A stretch of 64,000 nt of DNA from positions 28,706,001 through 28,770,000 of the forward strand of contig NC_092674.1 in assembly GCF_964355755.1 (NCBI RefSeq), in the 5' to 3' direction. Under the pieces are notes generated by a model that was not told the DNA's origin, searched no databases, and saw only the letters and a program-made list of their open reading frames with translations. Positions 3,820 to 62,017 of this stretch are shown here, piece after piece (positions within the stretch are counted from its first letter, which is position 1; every line of letters starts with the position of its first letter). The translations under genes and the position numbers were made by a program. Origin of the DNA: Antedon mediterranea (Eukaryota; Animalia; Echinodermata).

Positions 3820-5599
3820 TTTGATTGTTTGTTAGACACAGCAACTGGAAAGAAATATTTAAAAATGATTATGACAATAACATTAAAAGAAATAATGATG
3901 GTAAAAATCACGTTGTAAGCATGCAATTTGTATCCATTATTTATTGTTGATGCACATGGACCAGTGTATGATGCAGGACATTGCTGAAGTTTTAATAATC
4001 TGATCACATGACCATAAATGTAGAAATAGTCAACGAAACCAAAGTGAGCTTAAGTATTATAAAATGAGAAGTTGAAGTGCATAGAGAACTTCCGAATACT
4101 TCCAAACTTGTATCAGAATCGCAACAAAATATATTGAATTTCAATTATAGGTCCCAGGCAAGTGTAATGTTCTTTTTTTAGATCAGCTCAATCACAAAGT
4201 AAACCCTAGATCAGGTCTATAGCTCCACAGTCGCTGAGTGAATCTCGTCTACAGTTGATAGAATCAAAATCTTAGTAGGACAAGGTCGTATTCACGAATA
4301 CTGATACAAAAAAATAATGGAATTGAATTAATACAAGACAACTGTATTGAATAATAAGAGGCGACCTAGACAAGTCAATATTCACAAAGTCAGCTAAAAA
4401 TAACTGTAAACATTCTAAATACTAAAATCTCTTCTTTCGCATGTTCACTTTATAGTGTACAAATCCAGAAAGTAAAGAAATGGAAAATACTACAAAGTCT
4501 CTTTTTCGCAGACCACTTTTTTGGCTAATTTACAAATCAAGAAACTATAAAAACAAGGCCATATACATGGCTACAGTCGCGTGCTCAAGTTAGTGTTTAC
4601 CGACCAAACGAACGACCAAACAACCGACATATTGAGCTGTAGAGTCACATTGCACGCACGCGACTAAAAATGAGGAATACTAGTACTACTTTTTGAAGAA
4701 TTTATAAATCAGGATATGCTTTTTTATTGCATGTACAGATAATTCTACACCCTACATTATTTTGCTATTCAGAACGTCGAACCAAGGAATCATTCCTACG
4801 TGATCGAACTGTATGTGCATCTAAGCGTTTATTGGAAAGGAACAACGTGAATTATTCTCTCTCCTTTGATTTGTTTGTTGTCGCGAGATGATGTTTATAT
4901 AGTGGTACCTGCTGGCCTTTACTCCCCTGACATATCTTTTATTAAAGCAAAGAGAAAAACAACCGAGTTGTTATCGAATTAGCTTGTTTTTAAAAACGTG
5001 TGTCCATCTGCGATATGATCTTTGTTTCACGTTGGCAGATATGTCCTCGCGGAAGTCAGAGATATTATGTGAATCGCAGGAAAAAGGAAGTCGAATTAAG
5101 TGTGCTAATTTATTTCTTCCTTGAGAAAGAAAAAAAATGATGTAACTAGTAATAAACAAGAGTATAGTGAGGTTTCAAATATTACACTTCAGTGTCTTAT
5201 TTCCGTTGAAAGGCTTTCACTTATTTTCAATAACAAAGTATTCCTATCACATCCTGAAAAGAAAAAAAAAGCCTCACATCTTTTCAATAATATCTAACGT
5301 AGATTACCAGAGTTTGTAGATTATTTGTGCTTTATTTACCGTGTTTTTGTTGACCCAATTAATATTTGTGTATTTTCTAATAAGTTCGTTAAGTTTAACG
5401 TGACAACAAGGTCGTCATTCCAGCTTTTATATATTTCGAATAAAATGTGTGCAGGTCTGTATATTAGCGTGTAGATACCGTTATGCATATTTTGAGCTGA
5501 TCAAAGATTTACGTATCATTAGTCGCTGCATATTGTTACAGTATAATATGTTTGATCCAGTAGCTGGTGAGGTATTCACCATTCACACTAGGCTAAGGG

Positions 5600-5638
5600 C
5601 ATGGAGTTATGAAATTAAACTAATTCTATAACTCCATG
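5600..5638. mobile_element. 39-bp micro-MITE with 11-bp TIRs and 8-bp TSD (hAT-like)
   Basis: GCTAAGGG-[CATGGAGTTAT...ATAACTCCATG]-GCTAAGGG. Confidence 0.65.
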
Positions 5639-7146
5639 GCTAAGGGTATATATCATTCAAAATTAAGAATTCTAAAAAATGAATAATCACTTAAGTGAAA
5701 TATCTCACTTAATGACGTGTTTGGTTGAGACTGGTCCTAAACCTAACATTCGTAATTGGTAATACTAATTTTCTTTACGCGTTCATCATAAGCTGAATGA
5801 CCACTTTGGTACCCGTCTTGCGTTCAACCCAAGTGTTTCCGACGATGTCTTCCAAGCATCGCGCATAACAAGTTACTGTGATAATTTAATTACGTAAGCA
5901 CTAAAGTTTTTTCAAACCCGCAGAAGTACAAATTGCGGTCATTGAATAGATGCTGCTGCATAGGGAATTTAAACAGATATCCGTTTCCATCTTCCAAATT
6001 AAGTATAAATATGGATCGAAGAATACACAAGAAGGTCTCATGGGAAATCCCAACCTTGGAAGAGCACTAAAGACAATGCTTTGAATCGAGTGCAATGTCA
6101 CAAATAAACGCCTTAAATTATATTTGGTAAAGTTTAAAGGAAAAATTCAATTCTTTTCATTCCATACGACATTTCATCCCGTAACTAAAGACATTTCGTT
6201 AACCAATTTGTGGATGTTAAAAAACACGATAAACGCAGATTATGCGGTGTTTATTCAGTATCACCTTAAATCTGTCGGACGTAACTTAAAAAGTGAGGTT
6301 GTACGAAGTGATGTTACGCCAAACGTAGGCCTATATTGAGCAAATATATGCTAACAGTTTCTGAATGGACAAGACAGTATAATGCAATCAAGTAATCCTA
6401 AAGATAATTATAAACAGTTAGGCTAAATCTGTTTTTAAAAAAATGGAAAAAAAGTGTCCGTAACCCGTCAAACGCAATAGATAAATGCTATTGATTGAAA
6501 AAGAATTGTAGAAAATTAAAATTCCTCTCACCTAAAGAAAAATTATAAAATTCTGCGGAGCTCCTTTGAAAGTCCGTCTGTAAGGTCAATCCAAAAAGAA
6601 TGAAGGCTTCACTTACACAATATACAACTCCTTTGAGTTGAGAATAACTTTCACGTTGAAGATTTTATACTCACAACCTAAACCACACCCAAAGGAAATA
6701 GCTTTAAGATATAAAGCGACTCGTGATTGGCTGCCTGATCATGAGTCACAGACCGGGTTATCAATGTCTGTTAAAACTTTATTTGCTAGTGAAATAAAGA
6801 ATAATTTGAAGTTCTCGGGTCATCATGTTTTTTAGAAACTAAAAATAGGTTTTTAACATGTGTCATTGAAAAGGTCAGTTGAAAGTTATGATATCACAAT
6901 TAAATAAAGATGTTTTGACGGCACAATTAACATTATTATGGAAGTAATTAGAATATTTCTGTTCATAATCATAATATTATTATTCATAATTAATCTGACC
7001 TTTCTCTGACACTGATATTTGTTTTATATCTCATGATTGCAAATACTAAAACTGTTAACTTAAATGTCTTAGTTACATGTTCATATATTGATACAGTAGT
7101 TGATATGTTGATCATCCCTTCAAATCATTTCGTATGTGCATGTAGA

Positions 7147-21724: not shown

Positions 21725-24700
21725 ATGCCATCACAAACAAATGAGGCTGTGATTATAGATGTGTGGGCTTCAAATCTTGAAGAAGTGTTTAGGAAAATTA
21801 GGCTCCTTGTTCAGAAATACCCATTTGTCGCAATGGTAGGTTTTCGTGATGTTTGTCAATTGTTTCGACAAATTGGCACACTGAGCCCTTCCCTTCCTTC
21901 CTTTTCTCTTCCTTCCTTTTCTCTTCCTTCCTTTTCTCTTCCTTCCTTTTCTCTTCCTTCCTTTTCTCTTCCTTCCTTTTCCTTTCCCCTTCCTTCCTTT
22001 TTCTTTCCCTTGTTTCCAAACAACAAACAAAAAAGTGTAAACATTTGGCAGAACACCATGATTAAAGCCTTGTCTACACTATCAAACTTTATGTGACAAA
22101 AAATGCCCATATATAGACATGATGATGGCATATAACTATCATATTTTTTTGTCAAACTAGTTTGATAGTTCATCTAAAGTCTTTATAAATACTTTAAATT
22201 AATATTACTTACCTTATTCTGTTGATTTTGTTTTTAGGATACAGAATTTCCTGGTGTAGTTGCCAGGCCAATCGGAGAGTTCAAAAGCCCTGCAGAGTTC
22301 CACTATCAACTCCACCGGTGCAATGTAGACCTGCTGAAAATTATTCAACTTGGATTAACGTTTTCAGATGAAAAGGGCTTACTGCCAATTGGAACACCAT
22401 CTACCTATCAATTTAATTTTAAATTTAACTTAGTGTAAGTACTGCAGAACACTTCACTATCTATTTGAAATATATTATTTGATTTAAAATAATGATAGTG
22501 AGGCATTTAATATATAGGCAAACTGCCTAAAGGCCCATTTACACTAGGACGATAACGATCGACGATAAATAGATAAGCATGCATTTTTCTTATATAAAAC
22601 AATAATTTAGAAAGGTTTTTATTCTAGAATTATAGAATACTTATTTATGCTGTCTTTGATAAAATAATATTTTTTTTAAATCCAATCAAATGACGTCATG
22701 ATCAATAAACAAAAAATATCGTTGTATTGTCACGATATTATTGCTCTTACTAATCATGACGTCATTTGATTGGACGTCTGAAAATATCATTTTCATCAAA
22801 GGAAGCATAGATGGTTCCTAAATAGTCCTAGAATAAAAACTTTTTAGATTTCTTTTGTTTTATGTATGAGCAATGCATATTTGTTTATTTATCGTCGATC
22901 GTTATCGTCCTAGTGTAAATGGGCCTTTAGGCTGTTTGCCTATTTATTAAATGCCTCACTATCGTTATTTTAACTCGAAAGTTCGGTGGAATCATTCATG
23001 ATTTTGTTTGATAATTTGCAGTAAAATTGTTGATTGATTGATCTATTCATATTATTATTTCAATTTGTCTAAACCAACAGTGAAGATATGTATGCTCAAG
23101 ACTCTATTCAGTTACTGACATCTTCAGGAATTCAATTTAAAAAACACGAGGAGGAAGGAATAGATGCAGATTATTTTGCGGAGTTACTGATGACATCTGG
23201 TATTGTCTTGAATGAAGAAGTAAAATGGATTACATTTCACAGGTACACTAGCTGATTCAGTGTGTCTAGGCAAATGTCATAACGTGATTTGCTGTATTCG
23301 TAAATACAGTGTCACATGTCATTTGTATCCTAAGATGCTAGGCAACCATAAAAACTTTTGCTATGATACAATACAACATGTGATAAACATGTGATGCTGT
23401 ATCAAAGAACGTTCCTACTCAACAATTTTAAGATACAGCACAGAGAATTTGGTGGAGGATGTGAAGTGATGAATTAGTAACAATGCCAAGATGATCCATG
23501 TTTTATCAATTGTTGTAGTTTTACTGCTTAAAATAAATTAATATGTTTTTTTTTTAACTTTCTTATTAGTGGTTATGACTTTGCATATTTGTTAAAGTCG
23601 CTGACAGGGCTTAATTTACCGTCAGAAGAAAGTGAATTTTTTGAACTCTTACGGATTTACTTTCCTGGAATTTATGACGTAAAATATTTGATGAAAAGCT
23701 GCAAAGACCTTAAAGGAGGATTACAAGAAGTTGCCGACGATCTTGAAGTAAGTTTGACAGTTCAGGTTTTTGAAAATTATACGACCACTTTTGGAAATTA
23801 TGTGACCACTTTTAAAATAAAATATATCTACAGGCCTTGTCTTTTTGAAAATTATAGGGGTGCTAAAAATTTCACTCCTCAATACATTCAGGGGTGCTGT
23901 ACTGTACTGTTGGGTGTGCTGTTTGTATTTTGGTGTGTAGAAGTTTTTCAAATTTAAGCGTGTTGTAAATCGCATACCTCAAGGGCATTTTAGGAGTGTG
24001 TTAAGTGAGTGATTGCACTCGCTCACCTCACAGGACAAGGCCTGTATCTAGTATTTAATTTTAAAGGCTCATCTGTCACTGGACATATCATTCCATTATT
24101 GTTAAATTTGGTTTGCCTATCATTATCAAACAAAAATAATATTATAACTTTCTATCTTTTAAAAGATGCTATCATGTTAAAATTTACCTTAGTCCTAGAA
24201 GCTGAGTACCCATCACCACACAGCAGATGGATTATGAGAAGTACAAACTATACTAAGAGATTGTTTTTCTTTTTTACTAAAGGTTATAAGAATAGGCCCA
24301 CAACATCAAGCAGGTAGTGATAGTCTATTGACGTTACAAACGTTTTTCAAAATGAGAGAAGTAAGTTTAAAGCATTTATTTACCTATTTTAATTATTTAT
24401 AAATTTATAAATTTATAATTTGTATTACTGATGGGTTCCAAATTAGAAAACTAAATTATTGGGAGACTTTATAAATAATAGCCAAATTATAGAGGGCGCT
24501 AACATTTTTAAAAGTGCATCCAAACATAAGGCATTATTTGAAAATATATCATTGTCTATAGTAAAAAAATTGGTATTCCAGCAGCTTTCCAATGTGTGCA
24601 ATATGCCAAATAAAAATAAATTGTTAATTCATGTACTATATTATTAGTACAGTGAATTCTCCCAAAATGGGCTAGCCTAATATGTCCGATTTTCTGGAAA

Positions 24701-28371: not shown

Positions 28372-29027
28372 TAATACCTATTACGTTTTATTGGTTGTTT
28401 ACAAAGTTCTTGTTCTTTATTAACAATCTTCTCTCAAGTTTCTGTGGTTTGTGTTGACTGTAGAATAATAATTTAATGTTTGCATTCCTATGCTTGTAAT
28501 TAGGCAACAACAATGATATGACCTGTTTATTGTTTTTTATTATAAAAATCGACATATTTTGATTGTTTTACATCATGTAAATAAATGAGGGATACATAAA
28601 CTTGGTTATTTAATTGTCTTTTTTGGCTGATGATTCGCATTTTACTCATTTAAGTATAAATCAAAATTACTGACAAAATTCTTAAACAGCCAGAAATAAT
28701 TGTCAAGCTATTGCAAAACACTATTGGAGTCCCGATAATTACGGTACTTACAAATTTTATCCGTAAGTTTTCTCAATGTACAACTTGGTATAAAGTACAA
28801 ATTACCTCAGAGTAGAGGGCAAAATATCTGAACAATGTACCAAGAATACAGAATTTTAAAAAATAATAATGTAGTCCAGAAAAGTGAGGACAAGAGCAAT
28901 TTCAGAGCCCATTAACCCCCAACCCCCACGATGTACTTTTGCTGAGGTGAGCACAACCTACAGATAGTCTAAATATTCTTTTCAAACTTTTTCCCAAATT
29001 TCAACACTAGTTACATCTTGCATTATC

Positions 29028-32000
29028 TCAACTGACGGTGTTCCCTTTTCTTTCGTACAATTTGAGCATTTCAATGCAGAAACGATGTAAAGGAAACCCA
29101 ACAACATTGTAGTAGTCACCATGGATACCTTCAACTAACGTTCCTCCCAATGCTTGGATACCGTATCCGCCTGCTTTGTCCCTGAAAGAATATACAAATT
29201 GTGTTAATAAATGGCGATAAAATCTAGACAATGACTGCTCCCGCAACATTAAAGAAAGTTTGTATTGTTTGTATCAATTTAAGGGCACTATTTTCTCAAT
29301 AGTTTCTTAGCAAAATCATACTAAAGTTGTTGCTTATTTGGCTGTAGTATTATTACCTAGTAAACTCACCAAACAAAACATAAACACCATAGTGTGCATA
29401 CTGTAAACATCAGAGTTTTGTGATATGAAAGGGTCTAAAGCTCTGTCTACACTATCAAACTCAATGTCACAACAAAATGTGATGTGCCCATATATAGACA
29501 CGATGATGTCATATCACTACCATATTTAGGCATATCGCTACCATATTTGGGCACATTATTAAATAACTTACATTGGTTCACCAGTGTTGACATAACTCTT
29601 AATCACATCAGCTGGCAAGTTGCCAAATTTAACATCTGTTGCTTCATGGAAGATCACCTGTTGATGGGTGCCATCTTGAAATGCTGCCAAATAAAACATG
29701 ATTAAAGAGATTGTGTTATAACACACCTGAGTAGATTCATGAGATAAGGGATTGTCTTCTTGTGTTATTGTTATTTAGAGAGTTCTAATTACTGTACTTC
29801 ATAATATAATCATTACAGTGTAAAGCTCTGTCTACACTATCAAACTTTATGTGACAAAAAAAGTGATGTGCCCATATTTGGACATAATGATGTCATATCA
29901 CTACCATATTTGGGCACATCACACTTTTTTGGTCAAACTACTGTAGTTTGATAGTGTAGAAAGAGCTTAAAGGTTTTACCTTTGTTTAATACAACACCAG
30001 TGTACACGCTGTGTGTCCGTCCGCTAAGTTTTGTCAGCATATCTATTGCATCTGATTTGTCTGCCGGTTTTTCCATTATCTTCTTATCTAAAGCCTGCGG
30101 TAATACATTTGATAAATTTTAATTTTCTTTACATCATGATGTTGCCTTCTCTGTTTTTGTTCTATGACATTTTTTTAGTCATTTTATTCTTGTTATTTTA
30201 AATAGTAAATAAGGTTAGGTTTGGTATTAAACAGACAGTAACATTCCCTTCCCAGCTTACAGTACTATTAGGCTCTTCATACAAACAGTCAGTAACCACC
30301 ACACTATTTTTTTAATAGCCTCTAATACTTTGATCTAAAAAGAATCCTGCTTTACACAGTACCTCTTTGTTTTAACTGAATCATTACTTACCACTACGGT
30401 GTCGGCCCCTATTATAAGAGATGGTGGACTACCCTGTGAACAAAATAGTGACATTATTATTTATTTATACTACAGTACCTATATATACAGTATAGACTAG
30501 GCTATGAATGAGGTAGGTGCCACCCGGAGAGGTAGAAATTCTCATATAACTTTTCTAGACCAGTTTTTTCTGGGGAATCCAAATATATTGGGTAAACGGG
30601 CTGTAACCTGAGAACTTTTGCGTGAGGGCGCTTTTTTCAAAATGGCTGCCAGTTACAGTAGACTATGATATCTTGGCAACCACTGGTCATAGAGAGTTGA
30701 TTTTGGTGTCAAATTGTTTGGAATGTACATGTTCCTATTTGATGTAATAGAACATTTTGTCAGAAAATGGCCGGAAATACCTCTATTGACCTTTGACCCA
30801 ATATCTAACAGATATCAGACCTCCGTAACTACTCGACACAGAAAGTTGTAATTGGTGTCAAACTCTCCAGAATATAGATGTTTATATTCAAACTAATAGA
30901 ACATTATCTGTAAAAATGACCGGAAATAACGTTACTGATCTTTTACCCAAAATGCAAGACATTTCTCCTATCTGATCACGTTAATCCTGTCAATTAATTC
31001 ATTTTGTGCCAATTGGAGGTTGACATTCTCATATTGTTTTCTGGACCAGTTTTTCATGTGCAATTTGAATATATGAGATAAATAAGCCATAACAAGGCCA
31101 AGAATTTAATTCTTTTACTACATACATGCTTCCCTTTAGTGTTTCAGTCTGTATGTCGTGTATTAATCTTCAAGATCGCTCACATCACTGCAATCTGAAA
31201 TGTCTTCATATTCATTATGTGTAAACAGTTCCTGGACATCAGTGGGCAGTCTCAATCCATTTAGGCTCCATTTGTTCGTTCCATCCATTGTGTGTACTGT
31301 TGTTGACAAAATCATTGACGTCTGCTGATTGCCATTCTTTAGTAATGAAGTTTGCTCTAAGTATATGAAACTCAAGGGTCTGCTGACATAGTGGCAGTAA
31401 TGATATATCTGTAATCTTGTTGTGTCTGGAAAACTTTCTGTTGAAGATATCATATCTTGCTTGATTTACACTTTTCCCCTTCACTCCATACAATGGTGAA
31501 ACATACTCTTCAACTTCCTCATACAACTCTTTTGATGGAACATCTGACACTCCAAGGTTGCAGAATGTGTCAACAAATGTTGCTTTTGATTCCAGAAGCT
31601 TCCAGCAGGTACGTTTTCCTTTCCGAACGAAAGCGGAGTTATACTCGTTACCTGTGAAAGCATGGAATCCAATAAGGGATGATTTCTGCGCTTTTGTTAA
31701 ATCAATGTCACTCAATTTCAGTACATTTCGGTATTTCCCAGTGTTTGTATCAATAATTACCCTCCGCCCATCATCTATGAAATGAGATAGTGAAATGACT
31801 GGAATGTCAATGTCTCCAGAATGGGAACGAATTATTGCTACGCCTTGATTGTTATTTGTTAAAGCATGCTTTGCATGCAGGATGACTTTCGTGTCGGCTT
31901 CTTCTTGGCTACTATTAAGCTCCGGAACAAATACAACATCTCAGTTTAGTAACGTAGATGCATTCTTTGTACGATGAAAAGTAAATAACATCACCCCTCA

Positions 32001-35000
32001 TATCTGTTAGAATGCTTTCTTTCTTTGACACTAGTACACAGCGAATAAGCTCAATCAATCTGGTCTTGTTCTCGCCGTTGGCAAGGAAATTGTTGAAATC
32101 ACGGGGCAACTTTGATATTTTTGAGCTTACAATTACTTTTGGTGCAATACCGCGTCTGTTTCCCGCAGTGCTCGACCAGGATCCATAACATCATCTCACT
32201 TTATTTTCGAATAGTGGGAAGAAACTAGAAATCAAGGCAAATGGGAAAGTAAAAGTAATATAAGCTAATCGGGATGTTTTAGGAAAGCTTCTTGCCACCT
32301 CAACAAAGCATGGTAGAATAATTGACTTTAAGAAAGCCTTTGAGTATCCACTTACCCCTGTCCCGCTAAGCCTTGCTAATGCAGATGGGACAAGACGAAC
32401 AACTCAGAAAAGTGTCCTAATGGAAATTCTCATCGAAAGTTCAACAGATGTTATAGATCCTGGTCGGGCACTGCCAGCAAAGGCTACTGTCATTGCCTAT
32501 GTTGTTGACTTGATGGCATTAATCAGAACATTTACATCTTACCCTGATACGTACGAGGATCTTGTAGCAAAGGTTTTCAACAGCATCCCTAAAGGATACA
32601 AGCGTGTTGATATTGTTACCGATGCATACCTGCCAAAAAGCATTAAGTCTGTTGAGAGAAACATACGCGATATTGCACCAAAAGTAATTGTAAGCTCAAC
32701 AATATCAAAGTTGGCCGTGATTTCAACAATTTCCTTGCCAACGGCGAGAACAAGACCAGATTGATTGAGCTTATTCGCTGTGTACTAGTGTCAAAGAAAG
32801 AAAGCATTCTAACAGATATGAGGATTGATGTTACCTACTTTTCATCGTACAAAGAATGCATCTACGTTACTAACTGAGATGTTGTATTGGTTCCGGAGCT
32901 TAATAGTAGCCGGAAGAAGAAGCCTACACGAAAGTCATCCTGCATGCAAAGCATGCTTTAACAAATAACAATCAAGGCGTAGCAATAATTCGTTCCCATT
33001 CTGGAGACATTGATATTCCAGTCATTGCACTATCTCATTTCATAGATGATGGGCAGAGGGTAATTATTGATACAAACACTGGGAAATACCGAAAGGTACT
33101 GAAATTGAGTGACATTGATTTAACAAAAGCGCAGAAATCATCCCTTATTGGATTCCATGCTTTCACAGGTAACGATTATAACTCCGCTTTCTTTCGGAAA
33201 GGAAAACGTACCTGCTGGAAGCTTCTGGAATCAAAAGCAAAATTTGTTGACGCATTCTGCAACCTTGGAGTGTCAGATGTTCCATCAAAAGAGTTGTATG
33301 AGGAATTTGAAGAGTATGTTTCACTATTGTATGGAGTGAAGGGGAAAAGTGTAAATCAAGCAAGATATGATACCTTCAACAGAAAGTTTTCCAGACACAA
33401 CAAGATTACAGATATATCATTACTGCCACTATGTCAGCAGACCCTTGAGTTTCATATACTTAGAGCAAACTTCATTACTAAAGAATGGCAATCAGCAGAC
33501 GTCAATGATTTTGTCAACAACAGTACACACAATGGATGGAACGAACAAATGGAGCCTAAATGGATTGAGACAGTGATTCCCACTGATGTCCAGGAACTGT
33601 TTACACATAATGAATATGAAGACTTTTCAGATTGCAGTGATGTGAGCGATCTTGAAGATTAATACACGACATACAGTCTGAAACACTAAAGGGAAGCATG
33701 TATGTAGTAAAAGAGAATTAAATTCTTGGCCTTGTTATGGCTTATTTATCTCATATATTCGGATTGCACATGAAAAACTGGTCCAGAAAATAATATGAGA
33801 ATGTCAACCTCCAATTGGCACAAAATGAATTAATTGACAAGATTAACGTGATCAGATGGGAGAAATGTCTTGCATTTTGGGTCAAAGGTCAGTAACGTTA
33901 TTTCCGGTCATTTTTACAGATAATGTTCTATTAGTTTGAATATAAACATCTATATTCTGGAGAGTTTGACACCAATTACAACTTTCTGTGTCGAGTAGTT
34001 ACAAAGATATGATATCTGTTAGATATTGGGTCAAAGGTCAATAGAAGTATTTCCGGCCATTTTCTGACAAAATGTTCTATTACATTAAATAGGAACATGT
34101 ACATTCCGAACAATTTGACACCAAAATCAACTCTCTATGACCAGTGGTTGCCAAGATATCATAGTCTACTGTGACTGGCAGCCATTTTGAAAAAAGCGCC
34201 CTCACGCGAAAGTTCTCAGGTTACAGCCCGTTTACCCAATATATTTGGATTCCCCAGAAAAAACTGGTCTAGAAAAGTCATATGAGAATTTCTACCTCTC
34301 CGGGTGGCACCTACCTCATTCATAGCCTAGTCTAGTAGTAGGTGTACCTATTTGTTGTACCTTGATCCTGGCATCAGCACTGCTGCTTAATAATAATAAT
34401 TTACAAACTTAAAATGAAATGTTATTACTTACTGAATTTGATAATCGTTCTGCAACTTCTTGGGTCTTTCTCCTTGCTGTTTCTTTGACATATTCAGCTG
34501 GTGATGAAAATTGACTTTTATCAAGATTCTCGTCGAAATTTGACGGTGTAATGTTAAAAATTAAACCCTGCAAAATTTAAATTTCATATTTTAAAAGGAG
34601 TACTAACTAGTCCTCATTACTATTTTACTAAAAGAAATAGTAACAACATTTATTCACCTTGTGTATGCACTATCAACAATTAATTCATAATATGGGCCTC
34701 ATCTATAATCGATAATATAATATAGTATTAATTTTATACAATAATGTAACGTATAAAACGAACATGTACGAAACGACTCGGCCATGAGGCAGCAAACACG
34801 CATCTGAATAATTCCCCACAAACCAGATACTGGCAGCACCTAACGAGGGGCCTAACTTACTGGGCCTAGAGTTCTAAGGTGCAAATTCATTATTAATCTT
34901 GCTTTAGAAATGTAAGTATTTATTTATCTACCGTTGACTTTAAAATCTCCTTTCTTCTCGGCGAGCCACTAGCTAAAACGATTTTTGATAGCGACAATTC

Positions 35001-35021
35001 TGAAATTATTGGTTGCAACAT
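29028..35021 (-). CDS. Stand-alone Maf/YhdE-family dTTP/UTP pyrophosphatase (homologous to the N-terminal domain of ASMTL), 212 aa, 6 exons
   Basis: Exons 35021-34932 ([14 protein letters not shown]), 34567-34433 ([11 protein letters not shown]), 30433-30392 (IIGADTVV), 30094-29980 ([18 protein letters not shown]), 29674-29572 ([16 protein letters not shown]) and 29181-29028 ([24 protein letters not shown]); 639 nt in frame. Confidence 0.93.
29824..29967. mobile_element. Family-A MITE (one internal unit); a truncated copy lies at ~29439-29555
   Basis: TAA-AGCTCTGTCTACACTATC...GATAGTGTAGAAAGAGCT-TAA. Confidence 0.88.
31163..32190 (-). pseudogene. Decayed Academ-like transposase C-terminal region (left arm)
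   Basis: Fragments [31 protein letters not shown] and [18 protein letters not shown]; frameshifts and a ~180-bp deletion relative to the right arm. Confidence 0.8.
32205..33662 (+). pseudogene. Decayed, 5'-truncated Academ-like transposase C-terminal region (spacer plus right arm)
   Basis: [40 protein letters not shown], then the 33105-33662 ORF with [13 protein letters not shown]; frameshifts near 32713 and 32912 and an in-frame TGA near 32875. Confidence 0.85.
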
Positions 35022-35743: not shown

Positions 35744-38700
35744 TTATTCGTCGAATTGTTTACAAGGGCTGTTACACAGCTTTGGATCATCAGGGAAACT
35801 TTCCGTGATCGGAGAAATACCAAAGAGAAAAATGTGTCGTTGGAATTGCTTTGTCTCTCTGAACAGGTTGTCGGTGTTGTGCAATCGATCCAAAAAACCT
35901 AACACACCATAGTTGTTGGTGAACCTGGGGAAACATAATGCAGACAATTTATGTAAAGCATGACGTCATTTGCAATGTTAGTTAATTGAAAGTCTGAAAA
36001 GACAGGTAGAGACGGATATACAAACATTAAAAGCTCTGTCTAAACTATCAAACTAGTTTGACAATAAAAGTGTGATGTGCCTAAATATGGTAGTGGTATG
36101 ACATCATCATGTCCATATTTGGGCACATCAGATTTTTTTTTTGTCAAACTATGATAGTGTAGACAGAACTTACGAAACATTTGGAATATCTGTGTCTTTA
36201 TTGGCTGTGGTTGCTATTCATCAAGTTCATATATTCAGCAACAAACACTTACTTCAAATGGTGGAAGTCATGGGCTTCTGGTGAGGGCATCAACGGAAGA
36301 TGGTAACCAGAATGGACAATGACAGTTGTAAAAATAGCCAGGAGGAACCACAGCCAAGTGGTCATCATGTGACTGCCCATGATCATTGGTCCGAGTGCCA
36401 CTGGAAGGAAATTTGAGAGGACATGCTCAATGGGGTGTGCGTACAATGAGATGATGCCGACAGGAGCTGTCCATTGGTGATGCTTCTTGTGGATCCATTT
36501 GTATACAGAAGGATGATGTAAGAATCTACAAAAAAATAAATTAAAAAATTTAACATATCCCACAATGATTTCTTATGCTATTTAATATAAATTCTCTCTG
36601 TATACCTCATTGTTTCATTGTTAGTGATCTTTAAGGCTCTGTCTACACTATCAAATTGTATTTGACAAAATAAATGTGATGGGCCCATATATGGACTTGA
36701 TGATGTCACTCCCATATTTGGGATTATCACTACCATATTTGGGCACATAAAACTTTTATTGTCCAACTAGTTTAATAGTGTAGACAGAGCTTAACACAAT
36801 ACTAAAGTATTATCTATAGAGTAACTAATTTATTAACACTATATGGACTTCATACTGTGTAACTTTACTGAAATATGTATTGTTTATCACATGTGCATGG
36901 GCCCAGAGAAGAGAACAAAAAATCCCACAATGCACTAAAAAAGTCAATGTATTCAATAAAGGCGTACTGACTGTAAAACAAGAGAATGCTTTACCTGTGG
37001 GAATAATAAAAGGCAAATTCAACAGCGATGACGGACACCACAAGATCGAGAAGTACACGCTGAAAGGTTGGAAGTTGGGATGAGAAGATGTTTGCCCTTT
37101 TAACCATCAACGGGTACAAGACTGCTGTGATAGGTATACTGAACACCTGGTTAAATAACACCACAAGACACGCCTCTTTTAGTCGAGCTTTGTCCACCTG
37201 TATGATGCAAAAAAAAAGAAATGATTATTGTTAAAAAAACAATAATAAAGGTACCAATGTTAATAGGCGAACAAATTAATCTAAAACACTCACTGGAACA
37301 TTCTTGTCTGCTTGAACTTTGAACTTGTAAAGAACGCTATCTTTTCCTCTAAGATCTGTGTACATCAAAAATGCATTGAGAGGCCAAAAAAGCAGTACAG
37401 CAGTGATAACTTGAGAACCTAGAAAACAAAGAAATTATTGCATCATTTAATTAAACATAAATAATTGTCAAAAGGTAAAGAGTACATATTTTGTCTTCTA
37501 AAGCTAAAGCTCTGTCTACACTATCAAACTAGTTTCATATGGTAGTGATATGACATCATCATGTCCATATATGTGTACATCACATTTTTTTTTTTTTGTC
37601 ACATAAAGTCTGATAGTGTAGAGAGAGCTTAACACATAATATTATTAGCCTTGATAAAAATAGATATCAAAAAGTAGTTCTAGTTGTCAGAGAGTGCAAC
37701 ACACAACCTAACACCCTTAATCAACATGCATGACTTTCTAAAATATCTTACCAAATACGAAAGTGACAAAGTTGTTCCTGCCACACAACCATTGACATGT
37801 GTACCAGACCGTTTCCCAGAAGTTCTTAGAAGACCCCCAAAACTGCTGCAAGTGCCATGTGAAAGAGTTATGCATACACGCCAAGATGATCAAAGATGAA
37901 CCAATCATAATCGCTGCACTTCGAACAGAGTCCAATGAACGGGCAATTCTGCCAGCCTGTCAGGATATCAAATATTAACATAACACAGTAGTATAAAAAA
38001 TGCTTATGCATTAAAGATGTATTGTCCCCCAAAATCATGAAAAATAAAGATTTATAAAATCAGACTTTGAATAGGCCATTTTTTAGTTTTTATGAAGTTA
38101 TTCACTTCCATAGGAAAAAAGCCAACAAAAACAATGATTCCACTTATAAAAAGACAAAACAACCAGCAGTTAAATTTAACCAAAAGGTCATTGACAGCCA
38201 ATTTGACTGTTTTGCTTTAAATTACAGTTTTTTTTAGATAAATATTTTTTTGGTGATCCAATTTTTGGTCAAAGTGAACAACATTAAAATGGAATAATCA
38301 ACAATATAAAATATTTTTTTCAGGGGGACAAAATATCTTTAAGTAATTTTAACCTATATTTTATATTCTTTAATATTAATATCAAGGATGAACTTTTTTC
38401 TCTTTCTTTCCCTCAGGTGATTGGCTAAAATTTGGTCTCCCAATAGCTATTTTATAAAGAAAAGTTTTCATTCAAGACCAACCTATCTTTTCTATGGGGA
38501 TTGTGGAGATGGGCTTACTATCACTCTTATCTCTCAATACACGTTTTAGTATACTTACTCCATGCAGGGAGTTGCTGCTCCATGAATGGTTATTCCAACT
38601 ATTTTACTCCTAAACTAATTCTTACCATAAACATTTTACTAAACGATAATGCTAGTCCTATATGAGGAAATTAAAAATCAATTAACAGCTGTCAAATTCG

Positions 38701-38845
38701 GATGCACTACTGATGTCCAAATAAAAATTGGGTACGTTCTTAAACAAAGCAACAACACATATATACCCATCATGTCATGATATTTATGAATTACTGTCAC
38801 TAATTACTAACTAACAATACTATTGACTATAAACAACCTTACCAT
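35744..38845 (-). CDS. FAXDC2: Fatty acid hydroxylase domain-containing protein 2 (sterol desaturase/C4-methyl oxidase-like), paralog 1
   Basis: Exons 37956-37752 (TWHLQQFWGSSKNFW), 37418-37294, 37197-36995 (FYYSHR), 36525-36253 (FLHHP..HKKHHQWTAP..YAHPIEH..HSGYHLP..PEAHDFHHLK) and 35924-35744 (GVLGFLDRLHNTD). The start is tentatively ATG|GTAAG at 38845-38843. Confidence 0.9.
36031..36170. mobile_element. Family-A MITE; further copies in the same gene at ~36634-36791 and ~37508-37629
   Basis: Family TIRs and internal unit, in three separate introns of FAXDC2 paralog 1. Confidence 0.85.
38011..38342. mobile_element. Kolobok-like non-autonomous element
   Basis: TTAA-AGATGTATTGTCCCC...GGGGACAAAATATCT-TTAA; internal sequence matches the decayed copy at ~62244-62540. 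Confidence 0.8.
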
Positions 38846-41800
38846 GATAAGTTTACTAACGATTATCACTATGAGAAATAAAAGAAAACGAGTTTAAACC
38901 AATATGAACTGACAAATTCGGGGGATTTTTTAATATGGACGTCAAAATAAAAACAACAACAATAAAGTGCCCCCTCTATTGTCATCAGGCAGATAAGTTT
39001 TGTTGCATTTTTTTTTCTGATCCTGTACTGAACCTAACATACAAAACGCTTGTATTGTAGTGTAGTATTAGAAGATTTACGTATTATTATACGTCTTAAT
39101 AAGGCAACGTATTTTACGTATTTATTTTTCAAGCATTTGAGTTTTTTAACCGATCGCAACCTAACATAATCTTGTGTCTAAAAAATAAATTAGGCGGCAC
39201 TGACTTAACTGGCTAGTTAAGCAAAGGAAATGAAATACAAATTAATTAAAATACCTTTTCAATTAACCGTGGTATCATTTCTACTACTGTCTTGTGTCCA
39301 GTGCCCGGATGTTGTCATGTGAATGTTCCTGTAGATGATGATGTCGATCACATGAAACTAAACAATGTGACGATGCGCTATATCGCATAATTAATTGTAT
39401 TGGAATCTAGATATACAGCAGACAGTGCTATGTTTATACGGCCTTGCAGTAAGTATCTTGGTTGCGCATACATTTCCATTTTGCTGGTAGTGCTATAATT
39501 TGCAATCAGATTAAATATAAAGTGAATATTAATGACAACGAATTCACCGGACACAGTAAACCTAAAAACCACGTGGTATACTATACATACGTCACACGCT
39601 TGTACGAATTCTTGAACTTGATTGGTTGAAAGTTATATGACGCGTGCGTGGTTAATTATAGGAGGCGTATTTGTAGTACGTCGTAGCAAAACGAGACCCG
39701 CATCCTAGTATAGCCTCCATTATATTCGTATTTTCATTTTTATTTCATTTCATTTATTTCAAATATCGTCATCGCAGCCAAAGCTGAATTACAAGGATAT
39801 TTACATATTCTAAATATAAAAATTTGTATAAAAGTATAAAATAAAAGTATTTGTAGGCCTACTGTTTGTAGAACACTATAATATTAAACAGCTATTCGCT
39901 ATATCTTATAATAAGTTATATACTATTAAATTATTTATATATTATATAGTAGGGTACCGGTACATTTTTTCTTTATCGTTTCAAATCATCAAATCGTTTT
40001 AAATTGTTATTATATCACCGGGCGGTTTAGTATCCATGTTCTGTGCCTGTTGTGTTTATATTAGAAGGGAATATGTATTTTAATGTTTGTAATTTCAGGA
40101 ATTGCGGGGTTATGAAATAAGAAATACTCCGGTGTCATTAGTAAAAACAACGTTACTGTGAATTAAAATACAATAAAACAATTTATAAAAAATGCCATAA
40201 AAATCACGATTATTGTTCCGATCGGGCTGAAACTTGAGTAAAGTAATCCTGTTATGAGATACATTTTGAAACCCGCTTTGTACTCGCTATAGTCATTAGA
40301 ATTTGGAATTTGGTACACACTTGTATAACGTACTTGTAATTGAATTCTAAGCCAATCAAAATGCTTATACACAGAATGCCAACATTTAAATATCAAATGC
40401 ACCTGCGCATTCACAGGGATTCTCCAATTCACATTATTTTATTCCGAAGAGGGGAAACTTGGTGGAAAAAATAGCGACAAAAGTAGGCCTATAAGGTGAG
40501 TGATATATGAACACTGGCTTAACTAAAATAAAGAGTAGGCCTGCCTATAGTTAAAATGTTATCAGTGTGAATTAAGATATGTTCATATCTTTTGTCTTGC
40601 AATATTACGTAATTGTGAGTCTAAAACTGTATAGGCCTATCATACTCCAGAGGTATCATATCCTGGTACTGTTTTTTTATATTCGGCAATTAGTGTTGTG
40701 GTATACCGTAGTGTTTTTGTGTCTGTACGTTAGATGTTGCCCTATTACGTCATCATTGTTTATACTACAGATTAGATTTTTCTTCGTTTTTTGTTTTTCC
40801 AGATATTTGGTTTTTTCTCAACTCAACAATAAATTTCTTATTTTTTTCAACGACATTCTTCGTTCGCGCTTTACTTTTTAAATGTTTTGGCTATAGGCCT
40901 AAAAACATTTTATTTGGATTTCGCTACAACAAACAGTAACAACAATCTTCGATTTTGAGACGCGTTTTTAGACCATGAATTTTGGAAACAATTTTCTTCA
41001 ACTTCCAACGTAGCAACAGTACAACATTGTAACAACGAAGATCATCATATTGAACGCGGGTGCATTATTTTGGCCCTGCACAACCGGTCTGAGTGACCGT
41101 TTTACGTCATGGAATATAACATCGACGTTTTTCGATCAATCAAATCTTCGTGTCTCATTTTGTTTTCTACGCACTTTGTTGTTCTTTTTTTTGGTACGAC
41201 GGTAAAGTTATTTAATTTGTCATCTGGTAAGTTTTTGAGTAGAAATGATTGTGTCGGTGATGACACCGGGTAGAAGTATGCTACTAGTAGTTCTACTTCT
41301 GTCAGTTGGCCGATGTTTTTAGTTTGGATGGGGGTTTTCCTCCCAGAACTTCGGTTTTCCCTACTATACTTAAATTTATGCGTTAAAAAAGAGGAGGATA
41401 AACGTGGCCTTCACGCGGCCTTTCTTGTAAGTACCAGCTTCAACTGGGAAACCAACACCTTTACATTTCTTGAAAGGGCTATTTTGTCAGGGCAGTGCCA
41501 CAGAAGGTGTACAACTAAACAACGTTTTAATGGTTAAATGGTTTTAAATTTGTATAGCGCAAAATAAATCTCAATGCTTTTATATATCTGTTTTCAAATC
41601 GATACGATTTATTCTACTTACAATCACAGATAACATTCTAAGTGACATTATATACATATTAGTAATATCGTCTATGTTATGCGTAGCTTCAACTATCAAC
41701 TGCTTATCTATCCGTCCATAATTCACTAGGCTATAATTATGTATCGTCTTGTTTGGCGTCTGTTTATACATGAACAACATAAAAGGGTAAATAACGTATT

Positions 41801-42670
41801 TATATTTGCATAAAATATGAGAATGTTAATATTTTGCATTGACGGCATAATAATATTATTACACAGCAATTATTATTATAATATAATCATTTAAAATAAT
41901 ATCTACAAAATAGTTTCTAATGCGAATGTTTATATATAATGAAGTTTGTGAAGAATAGGCAAAAGCTTGGTTTCCACAAGACGCAAAGCAATGACGTAGG
42001 CGCACCGCAAGTGAGTGGACCAATCACAAGTGATGGATCATCCGAACTGTCGCTTGCGATTGGTCAACTCATTGCAAGCTATATTTCTTAAACATTAAGT
42101 CAAAATGGAGACACTAATAGCATTGAGATCCATAATAAATAATCTTCCCAAATAAGGGCAGGGTGAACAGAGGAGATTATATTTTGTCAACATTTATGTT
42201 AAAAACCGAGAAAATATATAATTGGCGCCTTATTTATGTGGTTATTTTAGTATTTTATTTATTATATTTAATTGTAATTTAAATAAATATATAAATAAAT
42301 ATTTTATAGCTTAAATACTTATATATGTACTTAACTATCTTATTGAATGCCCTTCAATAGATGAAATAAATGAAAAATAAATTATACAATTATGATCTAA
42401 ATCATGGCAGTGTGTCAATTTTGGACTAAATTCAACCCTTGTCGATGGTTTGAATCCCTACAACACTCTTTTAAAGCAAAGCATTTTGTAATTTCATTGC
42501 TCATACTGTATACAATATGCCAGTATGATGTGAGTTAGTAATGAATTAAACACATTTAGTTATTAGAATAAGAATTACAAGGGTACCAGTAAATTATCAC
42601 GACTACAAATTGACACCAATACATAAACATTAGAATATTAAACAACCGCAAACAATTTCACTAAACTTAA

Positions 42671-42823
42671 AGCTCTGTCACACAAACTTTGTGACAAAAA
42701 ATGTGATGTGCCCATATATGGACATGATTATATCATAGGAGTGCCATATTTAGGTACATCACTACCATATTTGGGCACATAACATTTTTTTGGTCAAACT
42801 AGTTTGATAGTGTAGACAGAGCT
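42671..42823. mobile_element. Family-A MITE
   Basis: AGCTCTGTCA...TGATAGTGTAGACAGAGCT. Confidence 0.8.
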
Positions 42824-42925
42824 TTAAGCTCTTTGTATAATTAACTGTATTTTGAACTCTCCACATTAAAAATATAAATATATTGACTATGATATTTAGT
42901 AAGAATAGAGCTATTCTGACTGATA

Positions 42926-43162
42926 CAGTAGAACCTCTATTAAGGGACACCTTCTGAACCAAAGAAACGTTCCCCTTTAATACTAATAGAGGAGTCTCCT
43001 AAATATGGGTTGACCCTAGTGTTATATTGTTGATTTCACGGGAAAATGTTCCCTAAATAGGAGGTCCACTAAATATGGGTTGACCATAGTGTTGTGTTTC
43101 CTCTAGTTGATTTCACAGGAAAATGTCCCCTTAATAAGGGTGCCAAAAGAGGAGCTCTACTG
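42926..43162. mobile_element. Tc1/pogo (Tigger-like) MITE with internal duplication
   Basis: TA-CAGTAGAACCTCT...AGGAGCTCTACTG-TA; CTAAATATGGGTTGACC.TAGTGTT occurs twice inside. Confidence 0.7.
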
Positions 43163-43327
43163 TATAGGAGCATTAGTAAGAATTTCAAAGATTTAGATGG
43201 TGGACTTAAACCTTAATCAGTTTCTATAAACCTTAATTAACACACAAATTATTACCCAACACGCACTTAATCTATGTTTGGTTTATTTAACATAATTTAA
43301 CATTTTGAGTATCTTTCTTATAGCACA

Positions 43328-46300
43328 TTATTTTGATTTTTTAGGGCTGTCAGGGAAGGTAGCAGCAACGGGTGTTAGATTGGTCAGAAGGATGTGGCGA
43401 TCGTATTGCTTACTCTTGCGGAACAAAACGTCAGTGCCGTGTAGACGATCCAAGATTCCTAGCGTGCCAAAGCAATTGGTGAATCTGTAAATAACATAAT
43501 ATTCAAATAAATGTACGCATTCAACACGAGAAACTTGACAATTACAGGAATCGATAAACTGTAAATAAATAATTTTATCATGCTTATTGATGATTGGGGA
43601 ATGGAGTAGAAAGAACACTAGGGATTGAACCCTGACACTAGGCCAGGATTGAACCCTGACACTAGGCCAGGATTGAACTCTGACACTAGGCCGGGATTGA
43701 ACTCTGACACTAGGCCGGGATTGAACCCTGGACATTGGAATTGGAAGGCAAGCACCAAGATACATTAATGTATACATAATATGTAGAATGGAAATGCATG
43801 TCTTTTTGTGGCAAACACTTTAAACCAATCAATTAAAATAAATATTAGTAGGATGCCTTCAGGTTTTTAACCAAGTATTTCACTCATAATCATCTTTATT
43901 ATTAAAGTAGTGTATTAGTGCAATTATTATTTTTCATTATAAAAAACTTTACTTATCGCTACCAGAACATACTTTAAATGATGGAAGTCGTGAGCTTCTG
44001 GCGATGGGAAAAACGGCAAATGGTATCCACAGTGAGCATTGACCGCTGACGAGATGACCATAATAAACCACATCCATATAGTAGCAATGTGGGATCCCAT
44101 GATGATAGGTCCAAGAGATGATGGAAGAAGGCTTGATACAATATGCTCAACGGGATGAGCATAGATAGCGGTCAGTCCAATTGGTGATGTCCATTCATGG
44201 TGGAGTTTGTGTACATGCTTGTAGATTAAGGGATGGTGCAAAAGTCTGTAATACAATTTTAGATTTTTATAATGTTGATAATATAATACTGTCTCATATT
44301 CATTACTAAAGCTCTGTCAAACTTTGTGACAAAAAAAATGTGATGTCCATATATGGACATTATGATGTCATATCACTACCATATTTGGGCACATCGCACT
44401 TTTCTTGTCAAATTAGTTTGATAGTGTAGAAAAATTTGTAGGGATCTTGTCAAAATTATTCTCGTGCAGTTACTGCACTGCAAAATTTTTTACTGCAATA
44501 AAATATTAATTTAGTAGTTTTGAGGCATATGATAAAACTCCTAAAAATTGCTTAAACAGGTTAACCAAAAATGTAGTTACTGAACTGCATTGGAATAATT
44601 TTGATCCCTTCAATTTATATATGTATGATAAAATGGCCTGGTTGTATAAATATTTATAATACAGTAGGCAACACTGTATTGTCCATTATCCAGTTGCAAA
44701 TAAATGTTTGTGAGCTGTAAAATTATTTATGACTTTTGGCTTTACCTGTGCGAGTAATAAAACCCTATCTCTTCAACAATGAGAAACACAGCCAATTCCA
44801 CAAGCACCCATGAGAATGTTGGTAGCTCTCTGACAACACTATTGCACCTCCACTCCATCAACGGCATGCAAGCGAGTGTGAAAAGAGTACTGACTACAAG
44901 TTGGTTAAACAGCACTACTTTCAATGCTTTTATTAGTTGTGGCTTTTTTACCTAAAAAGTATAAAATACAATTAAGATATTATAGTTGATTAAGAAAGTA
45001 TAAAAAATAATCATACTCCTGAACATCATAACAAATTTTTTTTGTACGTGTATCAAAATCGAGCGACTCTGCCATTTGCTAAATATTGCTACAACAAGCG
45101 ACAATCATTGCAGCAATATTTTAACCCAGAGAACCCATAACACCTATTTTAAAATATCTGCATTTGCTCACAATTTTAACAGGGTTTTTAAAAAACAAAA
45201 TATTTTTTTTTGTATACCGGGATATTGTGAGACTCCTGCAATTACTGAGAGAATTCGGAGGTCTGAAACTGTTACTTACTGGAACATTTTTGTCGGCTTG
45301 GATTTTGTAAGATCTCAGGAAGGATGGCCTGCCTGTTATATCCACAAACAGAAAGAAGGCGTTCAGGTACCAAAAGATTACACAAGCTACCACATTAGTT
45401 CCTAAAAAATAATTTAGTGAAAATCAAGAAAAACTTGGTGGATTTAAATTTAGATCTAGATTTAAACAATCATTTTATGGGAAAGCAATACAAATTACAT
45501 TATATGCAATGACAAAATATAAAAACAGTGATTTGGCAAGAAGCCAACAATTGATAAAATTACATCATCATATTTATATAGAAAAACGGATTACACTATT
45601 ATATTGCCCAGCAGATGAATTCCTGTATAGTTTGGCTGCTTGCCAATGTTGTAACTAGCAATTATATAATTGTGACCTTGATGTTGAAAGGTCAATTTGT
45701 AAGAGTTGACTGTAGTTATTTGAGAATCCTATAAACAGAATGATAATATTATGTATTGTACACACTTCAGAGAAACAATTTTGTTTGTGTGAAATGAAAT
45801 ACTCTGTCTACATTATCAAACTTTATGTGACAAAAATGTGATGTGCCCATATATGGGCATGATGATATCACTACCATATTTGAGCATATCACACTTGAAT
45901 ATGGCATTGTTTTTAAGATTAAGGTTTGATGTTCAATTTTTAATTTTTTAAAGACACAAGTTTGTTTCATACCCCAAAAACCTATAATCCATTTATCTCC
46001 TTCAAAGTAATCATACACTTGGGCCCAGAGAGCTTGCCAGAAGTCACCAGATGCTCCCCAGCACCTCTGTAGATGCCATGTCAGTGTGTTTCTGATGGCA
46101 ACAAAGATTATGATAACTCCACCTAAGATAAAAAATGACTTGTGGATGGACTGCTTCACACGACTTTTCTGAAAATGAAAAAAAAACAATTAATAATATG
46201 CAAGTTTTGCTCTGTTATGGTGTCAATTGAATGAAAACATTTATGGTAAAATTGCTAAATATTTTGTGTAATAATACTGTAATAATAAATAAAAACAGTT

Positions 46301-60699: not shown

Positions 60700-62017
60700 A
60701 GCAGCACTATTGCGTCGTCGGTTCCCACTAGTGATTACGCAATTCAACACTTTGCGTCAATATGTCGCTACGTTGAGTTGCGTCGTAAAGCTTGGGTTCC
60801 ACTAGCGACGCAACCTACGCAACGTAAGAAAATTCCCTTCCAATAATTGTGTTTTCCCCCCGCCTCGGTGACATCAAACCTGCGATGTTCGCAGCACAGT
60901 TGCGTCGTCGGTTCCCACTTGTGATTACGCAATACAGCACTGCGTTGCTGCGTTCTAGTGGGAACCAAGCTTAAGTGGGAACTAAAGCTTTGTGTTTTTA
61001 CATTCTACAAACTTTTCATCTTTTCAATTTCTCTCGATTTTCACGATGTTTCGGTATCTAAGTAATAATTGTTATTCCTCCTCTAGTGATCATTAATCAG
61101 TTTAATATATCATTTAAAACTGAAATTAAATATAAATAATAATTATGTTTTGTTTACAGGGTATTTATTATTGTTTCAATATGAAGATATTTTTTTATTT
61201 ATTTTGTCAACAATTTGAAGTAGACCTATTTGTGAATATAGTAATTTATAGTGACGTAACACAACGTAAGGGATTTGACCAATCACAAGCGATGAATTAT
61301 TATTATTGGATTCCCACTAGAACGCAACGCAGCGACGTATTAACGCAATGTGCTGTATTGCATATTCACAAGATGGAACCGATGACGCAAAAATGCTGCA
61401 AACTTAGCAGGTTTGATTTCACGCAGGCGGGGGCAAACACAATTATAAAGCTTGGTTCCCACTAGAACGTAACGCAAGGACGTAAACGCAACGCAAGCGT
61501 TTTAACCAATGACAAGCGAAGTTATAGACAGTTAGCAATCACAAGCGAATAAGCCATCGCTTATGATTGGTCAATTCACTTGCGTTGCGTTACGTCCTTG
61601 CGTTGCGTCGCTAGTGGGAACCACGCTTTAGGAAGGGCATTTGCTTTCGTTGCGTTACGTTGCGTCGCTAGTGGGAACCAAGCTTAAAGCGTGGTTCCCA
61701 CTAGCGACGCAACACAAGGACGTAACGCAACGCAAGTGAATTGACCAATCACAAGCGATGGCTTATTCGCTTGTGATTGCTAACTGTCTATAACTTCGCT
61801 TGTCATAAGTTAAAACGCTTGCGTTGCGTTTACGTCCTTGCGTTACGTTCTAGTGGGAACCAAGCTTAAAGCTTGATTCCGACTAGGACGCAACGCAAAG
61901 AGGAGGTAGACGCAACGCAAAGACGTAGACGCAACGCTAAGACGTAGCAATCACAAGCAATCAACACGCTTGCGTTGCATTTACGTCCCTGCGTTGCGTC
62001 CTAGTGGAAACCAAGCT
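60700..62017. mobile_element. Cluster of nested and abutting family-B and family-C MITEs
   Basis: Partial B 60700-60787, B 60789-60971, partial C ~61250-61295, B 61307-61684 interrupted by C 61449-61627, then C 61688-61866 and a C-like copy 61870-62017, joined through single TAA triplets. Confidence 0.88.

Follow-up and report, generated by a model that had tools for sequence, protein, structure and literature searches.

Does a long inverted duplication of a transposon in the intron of a working gene act as a dedicated silencer of its family, or is it one copy among many? This question is raised by a 3.8-kb Academ-type foldback element in intron 2 of a Maf gene of Antedon mediterranea, located on a 64,000-nt stretch of contig NC_092674.1 (hereafter the window; all element positions are window positions). 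A preliminary description had likened the element to the maize locus Mu killer and proposed it as a natural suppressor locus fed by transcription of Maf. Our analysis points to a different answer. The element is probably a recent insertion that is not fixed, belonging to a non-autonomous family of about 20 copies that a helper would move, with hairpin RNA likely hyper-edited by ADAR.

The mirror-image structure of the transposon was confirmed. Its main inverted repeat pairs 30493-32162 with 34334-32658 and has 1,628 matches and 40 mismatches over 1,668 nt (97.6%); the mismatches are 24 transitions and 16 transversions, accompanied by a few small indels. As first described, both ends of the element are the 3' end of the transposon, in inverted arms of ~1.7 kb. 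An inner arm of 28 nt pairs 32165-32192 with 32474-32447, and we hence place the loop at 32193-32446 and find the left arm short of 181 nt (32475-32655). The spacer of ~250 bp reported earlier is this 254-nt loop; the arms are however unequal, and the loop is coding sequence continuous with the right arm. In this double-3'-end layout, the 5' part has been swapped for the inverted 3' part, with coding homology inside the terminal inverted repeats (TIRs). The non-coding end of the right arm has an ATTAAA motif 55 nt past the stop, a direct repeat of 149-nt period (33874-34014 / 34023-34163) and a 68-nt direct repeat (33745-33811 / 34231-34298). For the pre-mRNA, a fold with 1,667 arm-to-arm pairs was predicted, with 23 helices of at least 20 bp, the longest of 246 bp.

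The coding content was compared with 19 protein relatives found among 996 candidates in a search of longer proteins. In tblastn, the plus strand of the element corresponds to residues ~1000-1476 of the 1,492-aa relative P0002, interrupted by two frameshifts (near 32713 and 32912), and the minus strand to P0002 residues ~1149-1461. The first ~1,000 residues are missing, including the start and the DDE transposase core. A model of the window open reading frame (ORF; 250 aa, predicted local distance difference test score (pLDDT) 82.6) gave weak Foldseek matches, none at E<=0.001. In a wide fold search it matched XRN1, Rat1, Exo1, T5 exonuclease, XPG and GEN1 over the whole domain at modest Z scores of 4-7.3, among them XRN1 with Z 7.3 (root-mean-square deviation (rmsd) 9.9, 197 aligned), Exo1 with Z 5.7 (rmsd 3.8, 140 aligned) and XPG with Z 4.1 (rmsd 4.3, 136 aligned). 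For the model of relative P0001 (46% identical, pLDDT 76), XRN/Rat1 proteins made up all eight matches at E<=0.001, and FEN1, Exo1 and Rad2 came next. Homology and predicted fold thus identify the coding part as the putative C-terminal 5'-nuclease third of an Academ-type protein, not its DDE core. The arms do contain ~1 kb of coding sequence as reported, but it is not the transposase core. Pfam returned nothing meaningful for the three element ORFs (EF-P matches lay under the cut-off), a PDB sequence search a single match at E 0.87, and the ESM Atlas unnamed clusters, in one of which 13% of members carry DUF6589. As a side observation, the last ~380 residues of protein P0006, named Ral GTPase-activating protein in its source, match the Academ-like nuclease region; P0006 is probably a gene model fused to a transposon.

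AcademX elements are set apart by a nuclease rather than a helicase; we take XPG/FEN1-like to be the label of this nuclease. TAG…CTA termini, carried by the element and by its relative L031, are presumably an AcademX hallmark. The element combines these termini with a 3-bp GTA duplication and the nuclease region, in agreement with the 3-4-bp target duplications and the encoded nuclease of AcademX (PMC10045372, as far as its consulted text goes). Unlike autonomous AcademX elements, it has lost the DDE region and the 5' end and is non-autonomous. No Pfam family reached threshold in seven of seven relatives, which agrees with the statement, in the available text of PMC5751038, that Academ has no Pfam profile. 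The Academ-type assignment, drawn from the fold matches and the published AcademX features, is well supported.

Are arms with coding sequence usual in this family? The preliminary description had raised this point itself, and relatives from a metagenome scan answer it. Out of 268 confirmed loci 80 were kept, all distant (roughly 28-50% identity); we screened the 28 that reach 4.5 kb or more and examined closely 14 with long coding cover. L031 (positions 123-6799 of its metagenome contig) is an Academ-like element of 6.7 kb that is complete, albeit frameshifted; its termini are TAG…CTA, and it has a 3-bp duplication and non-coding TIRs of ~500 bp. In L026, L045, L052 and L077, the TIRs measure ~100-360 bp and do not enter the coding span. 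Among the 14 loci, no credible TIR overlapped coding sequence; such calls in L010, L019, L020 and L038 (scores 27-39) were rejected as chance. The nuclease region lay on both strands in none of the 80 loci, 52 of which are shorter than 4.5 kb. A blastn search with the non-coding end of the element found no match in the 80 loci, and the parent family was not recovered there. Judged by these sequences, the coding-containing arms are the product of a rearrangement.

We examined five public runs of 15 listed from seven studies, all as assembled contigs: X1 and X5 from organism A (different samples and studies), X6 and X10 from organism B (different samples), and X8 from organism C. Two transposable elements of the miniature inverted-repeat class (MITEs) were excluded from the tables of joints and loose ends, which they would otherwise swamp. 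In X1, contigs of the flanks without differences from the window have depths of 43.4, 45.3 and 48.8. A contig covering 32126-32426 runs unbroken over the left-arm deletion and the inversion junction at a depth of 991, i.e., 20-23 times the flanks, although contig depth does not equal copy number. Four arm contigs reach depths of 1,713-2,235, 1.7-2.3 times the junction; this ratio of about 2:1 is as expected of a family composed mostly of foldbacks. Among the loose ends listed, none lies at 32193. We conclude that the foldback likely belongs to an amplified non-autonomous family of roughly 20 copies, with a fair range of 10-30.

The inversion junction is common to X1, X5 and X10. In X10, a strand-switch joint connects 32172 with 32468, with 76 letters on its shorter side, and the strand-switch contig has another left-arm deletion (32543>33073). 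In X6, a contig covering 32165-32256 has a depth of 339.5 compared with 33-48 for the flanks; on its shorter side it extends 28 nt from the junction, below our 31-nt bridging rule. We rejected the lower depth of this contig relative to the loop (491.6) as a sign of full-length helpers. Two contigs (total depth 510) bear a variant at 32227, and this sequence variant may account for the split. The X8 loop contig matches up to 32195 and continues with 43 unplaced letters. Other X8 contigs end at 32543 and restart at 33073, past which the depth is higher (24.2 vs 13.5); organism C may hold the same deletion sub-variant as X10. Moreover, at ~32713, ~32912 and 33712, majority contigs of X1, X6 and X8 carry indels relative to the window, the first two positions being the frameshift sites of the right arm. 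Other copies may hence have a longer, still startless, open frame across the nuclease region. Element contigs differ from the window (32165-34334) by 1.3% in X6 (27/2009) and 1.4% in X8 (29/2032), host DNA (28922-30458, 34423-34595) by 6.2% (55/889) and 5.6% (11/195), respectively. In a non-coding passenger, divergence this low points to introgression or horizontal transfer, or to a burst that shortly preceded the split of the species.

The host gene is intact, as had been stated: its six minus-strand exons have AG/GT at five of five introns and an open frame of 215 aa, and the last exon matches Pfam Maf (E 1.1e-11). The element's distances to exon 2 (98 nt) and to exon 3 (59 nt) confirm the earlier estimates of ~100 and ~60 bp, and therefore the intron would measure ~150 nt without the element. 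The insertion is polymorphic, a possibility already raised. In organism A, an X1 contig joins 30488 to 34337 at a depth of 43.4; in organism B, an X6 contig joins 30458 to 34423 with 87 other letters in between. The insertion is thus missing from at least one haplotype of organism A and from the sample of organism B. None of the listed contigs bridges the outer junctions of element and Maf, and the filled allele is known from the window alone; because contigs lose rare branches, this neither confirms nor denies it. In the predicted fold, both splice sites lie outside the long stem but are not necessarily free, as the 5' splice hexamer pairs locally and pairing covers 71% of the 3' site. We noted a further ATTAAA at ~31110 (minus strand), 51 nt past the element's stop in the second arm met by Maf transcription, which could cause intronic polyadenylation of Maf and yield poly(A)+ hairpin RNA. 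X5 leaves Maf intron 3 (30133-30290) uncovered, and we draw no conclusion from this gap.

Is the hairpin present as RNA? No run is labelled RNA on record; X5 and X10 were taken as RNA from splice joints alone, i.e., exon-to-exon joints over Maf introns 2 and 3. In a 1,297-nt X5 contig, exon 2 occupies positions 32-166 and exon 6 starts at 436, which leaves 269 nt in between, the length of exons 3-5. X5 and X10 are RNA, and Maf is spliced there. We counted variable places over 29975-34700 in these and in the unspliced, DNA-type runs X1 and X6. The share of A>G plus T>C was 198/248 (80%) in X5 and 172/255 (67%) in X10, compared with 18/60 and 26/84 (30–31%) in X1 and X6, respectively. Fisher tests against C>T plus G>A gave p 5e-9 and 2e-5, values to be read with care as the places are not independent and the animals differ. 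As the contigs fit both arms, the changes do not reveal the editing strand.

These differences lie in the arms. Among the listed pieces, a selection of the longest, six arm pieces of X5 had 79 differences in 777 nt vs none in 505 nt of a loop-plus-bulge contig; in X10 the counts were 165 in 2019 nt of arm vs 8 in 339 nt of loop. Within one X10 contig, we found 43/238 in the arm vs 8/336 in mainly loop sequence. Annealing of sense and antisense copies would edit the loop too; this pattern therefore points to intramolecular fold-back. ADAR editing of an intramolecular hairpin RNA is hence likely at the level of the family. The earlier idea that the element forms a double-stranded RNA (dsRNA) open to ADAR stands to this extent. 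At 32227, 32253 and 33677, X5 agrees with the window where the majority path of X1 differs, which favours the window copy or a close sister as the RNA source, and its indel states at 32714, 32912 and 33712 are those of the window copy. It differs, however, at 30818 (426 of 442 depth), 30820, 32163 (437 of 437) and 34003 (207 of 207), and the RNA therefore did not come from exactly the window sequence. In organism B, X10 contains edited hairpin RNA, although the Maf intron is empty in X6, a DNA-type run of a different sample. The dsRNA of the family is likely independent of Maf.

Several points weigh against the family reading. The RNA and the DNA-type runs come from different individuals, and alleles can mimic editing; the A>G/T>C skew together with the contrast of arm and loop argues against such mimicry. 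Given the alleles shared with the window copy, a diverged Maf-linked allele in the RNA animal of organism A may be a source of the hairpin. As all runs were seen as contigs, the 20-fold excess would halve if the flanks represent a single haplotype and would rise with loss of k-mers. The contigs of the five runs showed no further insertion site flanked by a target duplication of its own, and no helper element was found. Tandem or segmental amplification may stand in place of transposition; the GTA duplication and the empty allele suggest that the element moved as a unit. Finally, the empty allele is short by 3,848 nt, 3 more than the 3,845 predicted by a clean GTA duplication. A 4-bp target duplication with 2 extra nt suits it equally well.

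We propose the following course of events. In a single rearrangement, an inverted copy of the 3' end would have replaced the 5' two-thirds of an AcademX gene, by template switch, by repair of the gap that excision had left, or by a deletion running from one copy into its neighbour. With two intact ends retained, the product would have remained mobile and multiplied, mobilised as a unit by a helper transposase, and sub-variants differing in the left-arm deletion would have arisen later. Any transcribed copy would fold back on itself as predicted, and ADAR would deaminate the arms while sparing loop and bulge. Within the Maf transcript, 3.8 kb would be looped out by the stem and the ends of the short intron left close together, which is why the insertion is likely tolerated. 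We infer that the Maf copy would be one possible dsRNA source of the family among many and no dedicated suppressor.

Both features of the element have precedents, which we cite from the consulted parts of the respective reports. In Rpmar49 of Rhodnius prolixus, with 13 copies, 221 bp of the 3' part stand in place of the 5' part and the long TIRs contain transposase homology, and in Rpmar17 later deletions cluster near the breakpoint (PMC4678618). Seven sublineages of Drosophila mariner MITEs show the reverse replacement (PMC4161770). Like these, our element is non-autonomous, has long TIRs of inverted 3' sequence with transposon coding homology, and appears amplified from one progenitor; its breakpoint occurs at 20-23 times the flank depth. 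Regarding independent insertions, one filled site with a duplication and one empty allele were observed. Rpmar49 shows that this kind of rearrangement can multiply into a family (PMC4678618). In contrast to it, the present element is Academ-type, has arms of ~1.7 kb with ~1 kb coding instead of 221 bp, measures 3.8 kb instead of mostly <1 kb, and shares its junction between two organisms; the consulted text on Rpmar49 mentions no RNA editing. Galileo also lengthens its TIRs with internal sequence in non-autonomous copies (PMC3573991), as seen in its copies with two extended TIRs, but there the recruited parts are spacer regions of ~100-450 bp and here ~1 kb is coding.

Hyper-editing is known from transcribed Drosophila FB4 foldbacks (PMC5502491) and from transcribed copies of a palindromic Harbinger of Xenopus (PMC5625713). 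Like these, the Academ-type foldback is probably a multi-copy, self-complementary DNA transposon edited in the manner of ADAR without a neighbouring copy; unlike them, it holds long coding sequence of the parent in its stem, so that helper mRNA might in principle be a target. Hoppel killer (Hok) of Drosophila, an intronic foldback of ~2 kb, is edited and makes silencing small interfering RNAs (siRNAs), with ADAR acting antagonistically (PMC5558901, PMC5502491). An animal precedent of the proposed silencing mechanism hence already exists. Both are long intronic transposon foldbacks in a host pre-mRNA, and stem editing is found here as well, at family level and with DNA from other animals. Hok is, however, a single locus of adjacent separate insertions whose silencing was shown by deletion, and here one unit is multi-copy. 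Mu killer is a single dominant locus that duplicates the mudrA-side end in a plant small-RNA context (PMC3440606); here the 3' nuclease end is duplicated, in many copies and with an editing signature. A long inverted duplication within a host transcription unit is common to all three. The multi-copy junction, the empty Maf alleles and the edited RNA in organism B set the present element apart from single-locus killers. By this comparison, it would be built like Rpmar49 and edited like FB4, and does not fit a single-locus killer. As architecture and editing are both precedented, this is not a new kind of system. A search of titles and abstract beginnings, outside which lay Repbase Reports, the AcademH paper and supplements, found no Academ foldback.

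How do other explanations compare? That the arms are native long TIRs without rearrangement is practically untenable. Relatives have TIRs of 100-500 bp, and part of the 672-nt non-coding end may accordingly be native; the arms, however, include ~1 kb of coding sequence, ~1,000 N-terminal residues are absent, and the scanned relatives offered no comparable TIR. A repeat collapsed or misplaced in the Maf intron by assembly is very improbable, too. It would agree with the unbridged outer junctions and with the empty allele in X1, which is possibly the source sample. But contigs of X1 and X10 span the inner junctions, 40 mismatches and several indels separate the two arms, and the termini are exact with a target duplication; moreover, contigs lose rare branches in high-depth repeats, and a heterozygous animal would look alike. 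We also consider it improbable that read-through of the single Maf locus silences the family. The host gene is expressed and intact, the geometry resembles the two same-side ends of Mu killer (PMC3440606, consulted text), and the dominant X5 loop contig equals the window over 505 nt. Against this stand the junction at ~20 times the flank depth, the empty site in contigs of both organisms, the edited hairpin RNA of organism B and the lack of window alleles in X5 at the four diagnostic positions, and the part duplicated here is the 3' end, in Mu killer the mudrA-side TIR. The proposal of a special suppressor locus is hence not borne out.

A role for the whole family is compatible with the reading as an amplified, edited family, and we regard it as unlikely. 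All copies would feed Dicer or PIWI-interacting RNA (piRNA) pathways and silence the helper in trans, and ADAR would just tune this. In each copy, ~1 kb of the helper's coding sequence lies in an almost perfect stem, hairpin RNA is present in the runs, an edited intronic foldback of Drosophila yields silencing siRNAs (PMC5558901, consulted text), and the arm-to-junction depth of ~2:1 leaves little room for many full-length helpers. However, few helpers per many non-autonomous copies are ordinary. Editing is heavy, at ~8-10% of letters in the listed arm pieces, and hyper-editing antagonises RNA interference according to the same report. Furthermore, the family is many-copy and still polymorphic, hence the helper was active while hairpins accumulated. 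A more speculative extension, to which we likewise give a small chance, is a mobile killer: each copy would bring 1.7 kb of dsRNA against helper mRNA, with spread through host introns, silencing would grow stronger up to the point of helper shutdown, before which hyper-editing of the stem by ADAR would have let the family amplify and pass between related species.

Table 1. Positions of the foldback element, its parts and the exons of the host gene in the window.
Feature	Position	Strand	Remarks
Whole foldback element	30493..34334	.	3,842 bp, termini TAG…CTA
Target duplication GTA, left copy	30490..30492	+	
Target duplication GTA, right copy	34335..34337	+	
Left arm, inverted copy of the element's 3' end	30493..32192	-	181-nt deletion between 32164 and 32165
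Left-arm coding remnant	~32181-31163	-	frameshifted
Loop	32193..32446	+	254 nt, single-dose coding sequence from ~residue 1000 of P0002
Right arm, 3' part of Academ-type gene and non-coding end	32447..34334	+	
Sequence only in right arm	32475..32655	+	181 nt, predicted bulge, unpaired arm-to-arm
Putative C-terminal third of Academ-type protein (XRN/FEN1/XPG-like 5'-nuclease region)	32195..33662	+	tblastn, fold searches
Non-coding end	33663..34334	+	672 nt
Maf exon 1 (coding part)	34932..35021	-	
Maf exon 2	34433..34567	-	also spliced contigs
Maf exon 3	30392..30433	-	splice joints in X5 and X10
Maf exon 4	29980..30094	-	
Maf exon 5	29572..29683	-	
Maf exon 6 (coding part)	29028..29181	-	Pfam Maf match

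The window contains further repeats. A palindromic MITE of ~140 bp (e.g., 29823-29968) occurs 18 times, twice in Maf introns, and reaches a summed depth of up to ~2 million in X1; it is possibly a far larger dsRNA source than the Academ-type foldback. Smaller foldbacks lie at 61448-61867, with 183-nt arms of 98% identity inside an array of related palindromic units, and at 22478-22979, a nested inverted repeat of ~500 bp. In addition, 36249-46189 contains two similar fatty-acid-hydroxylase-like exons (36249-36572, matching Pfam FA_hydroxylase, and 43927-44316), whose sequences suggest tandem paralogues.

The probable family of edited foldbacks extends double-3'-end non-autonomous families to Academ-type transposons, with much longer, coding-containing arms. 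It would moreover provide a test bed of many near-identical long hairpins with loop and bulge as unpaired internal controls, with a presence/absence polymorphism in an expressed gene, and in two related organisms. With this system, one could ask whether ADAR shields a family of transposons against Dicer or does no more than remove the dsRNA that it forms.

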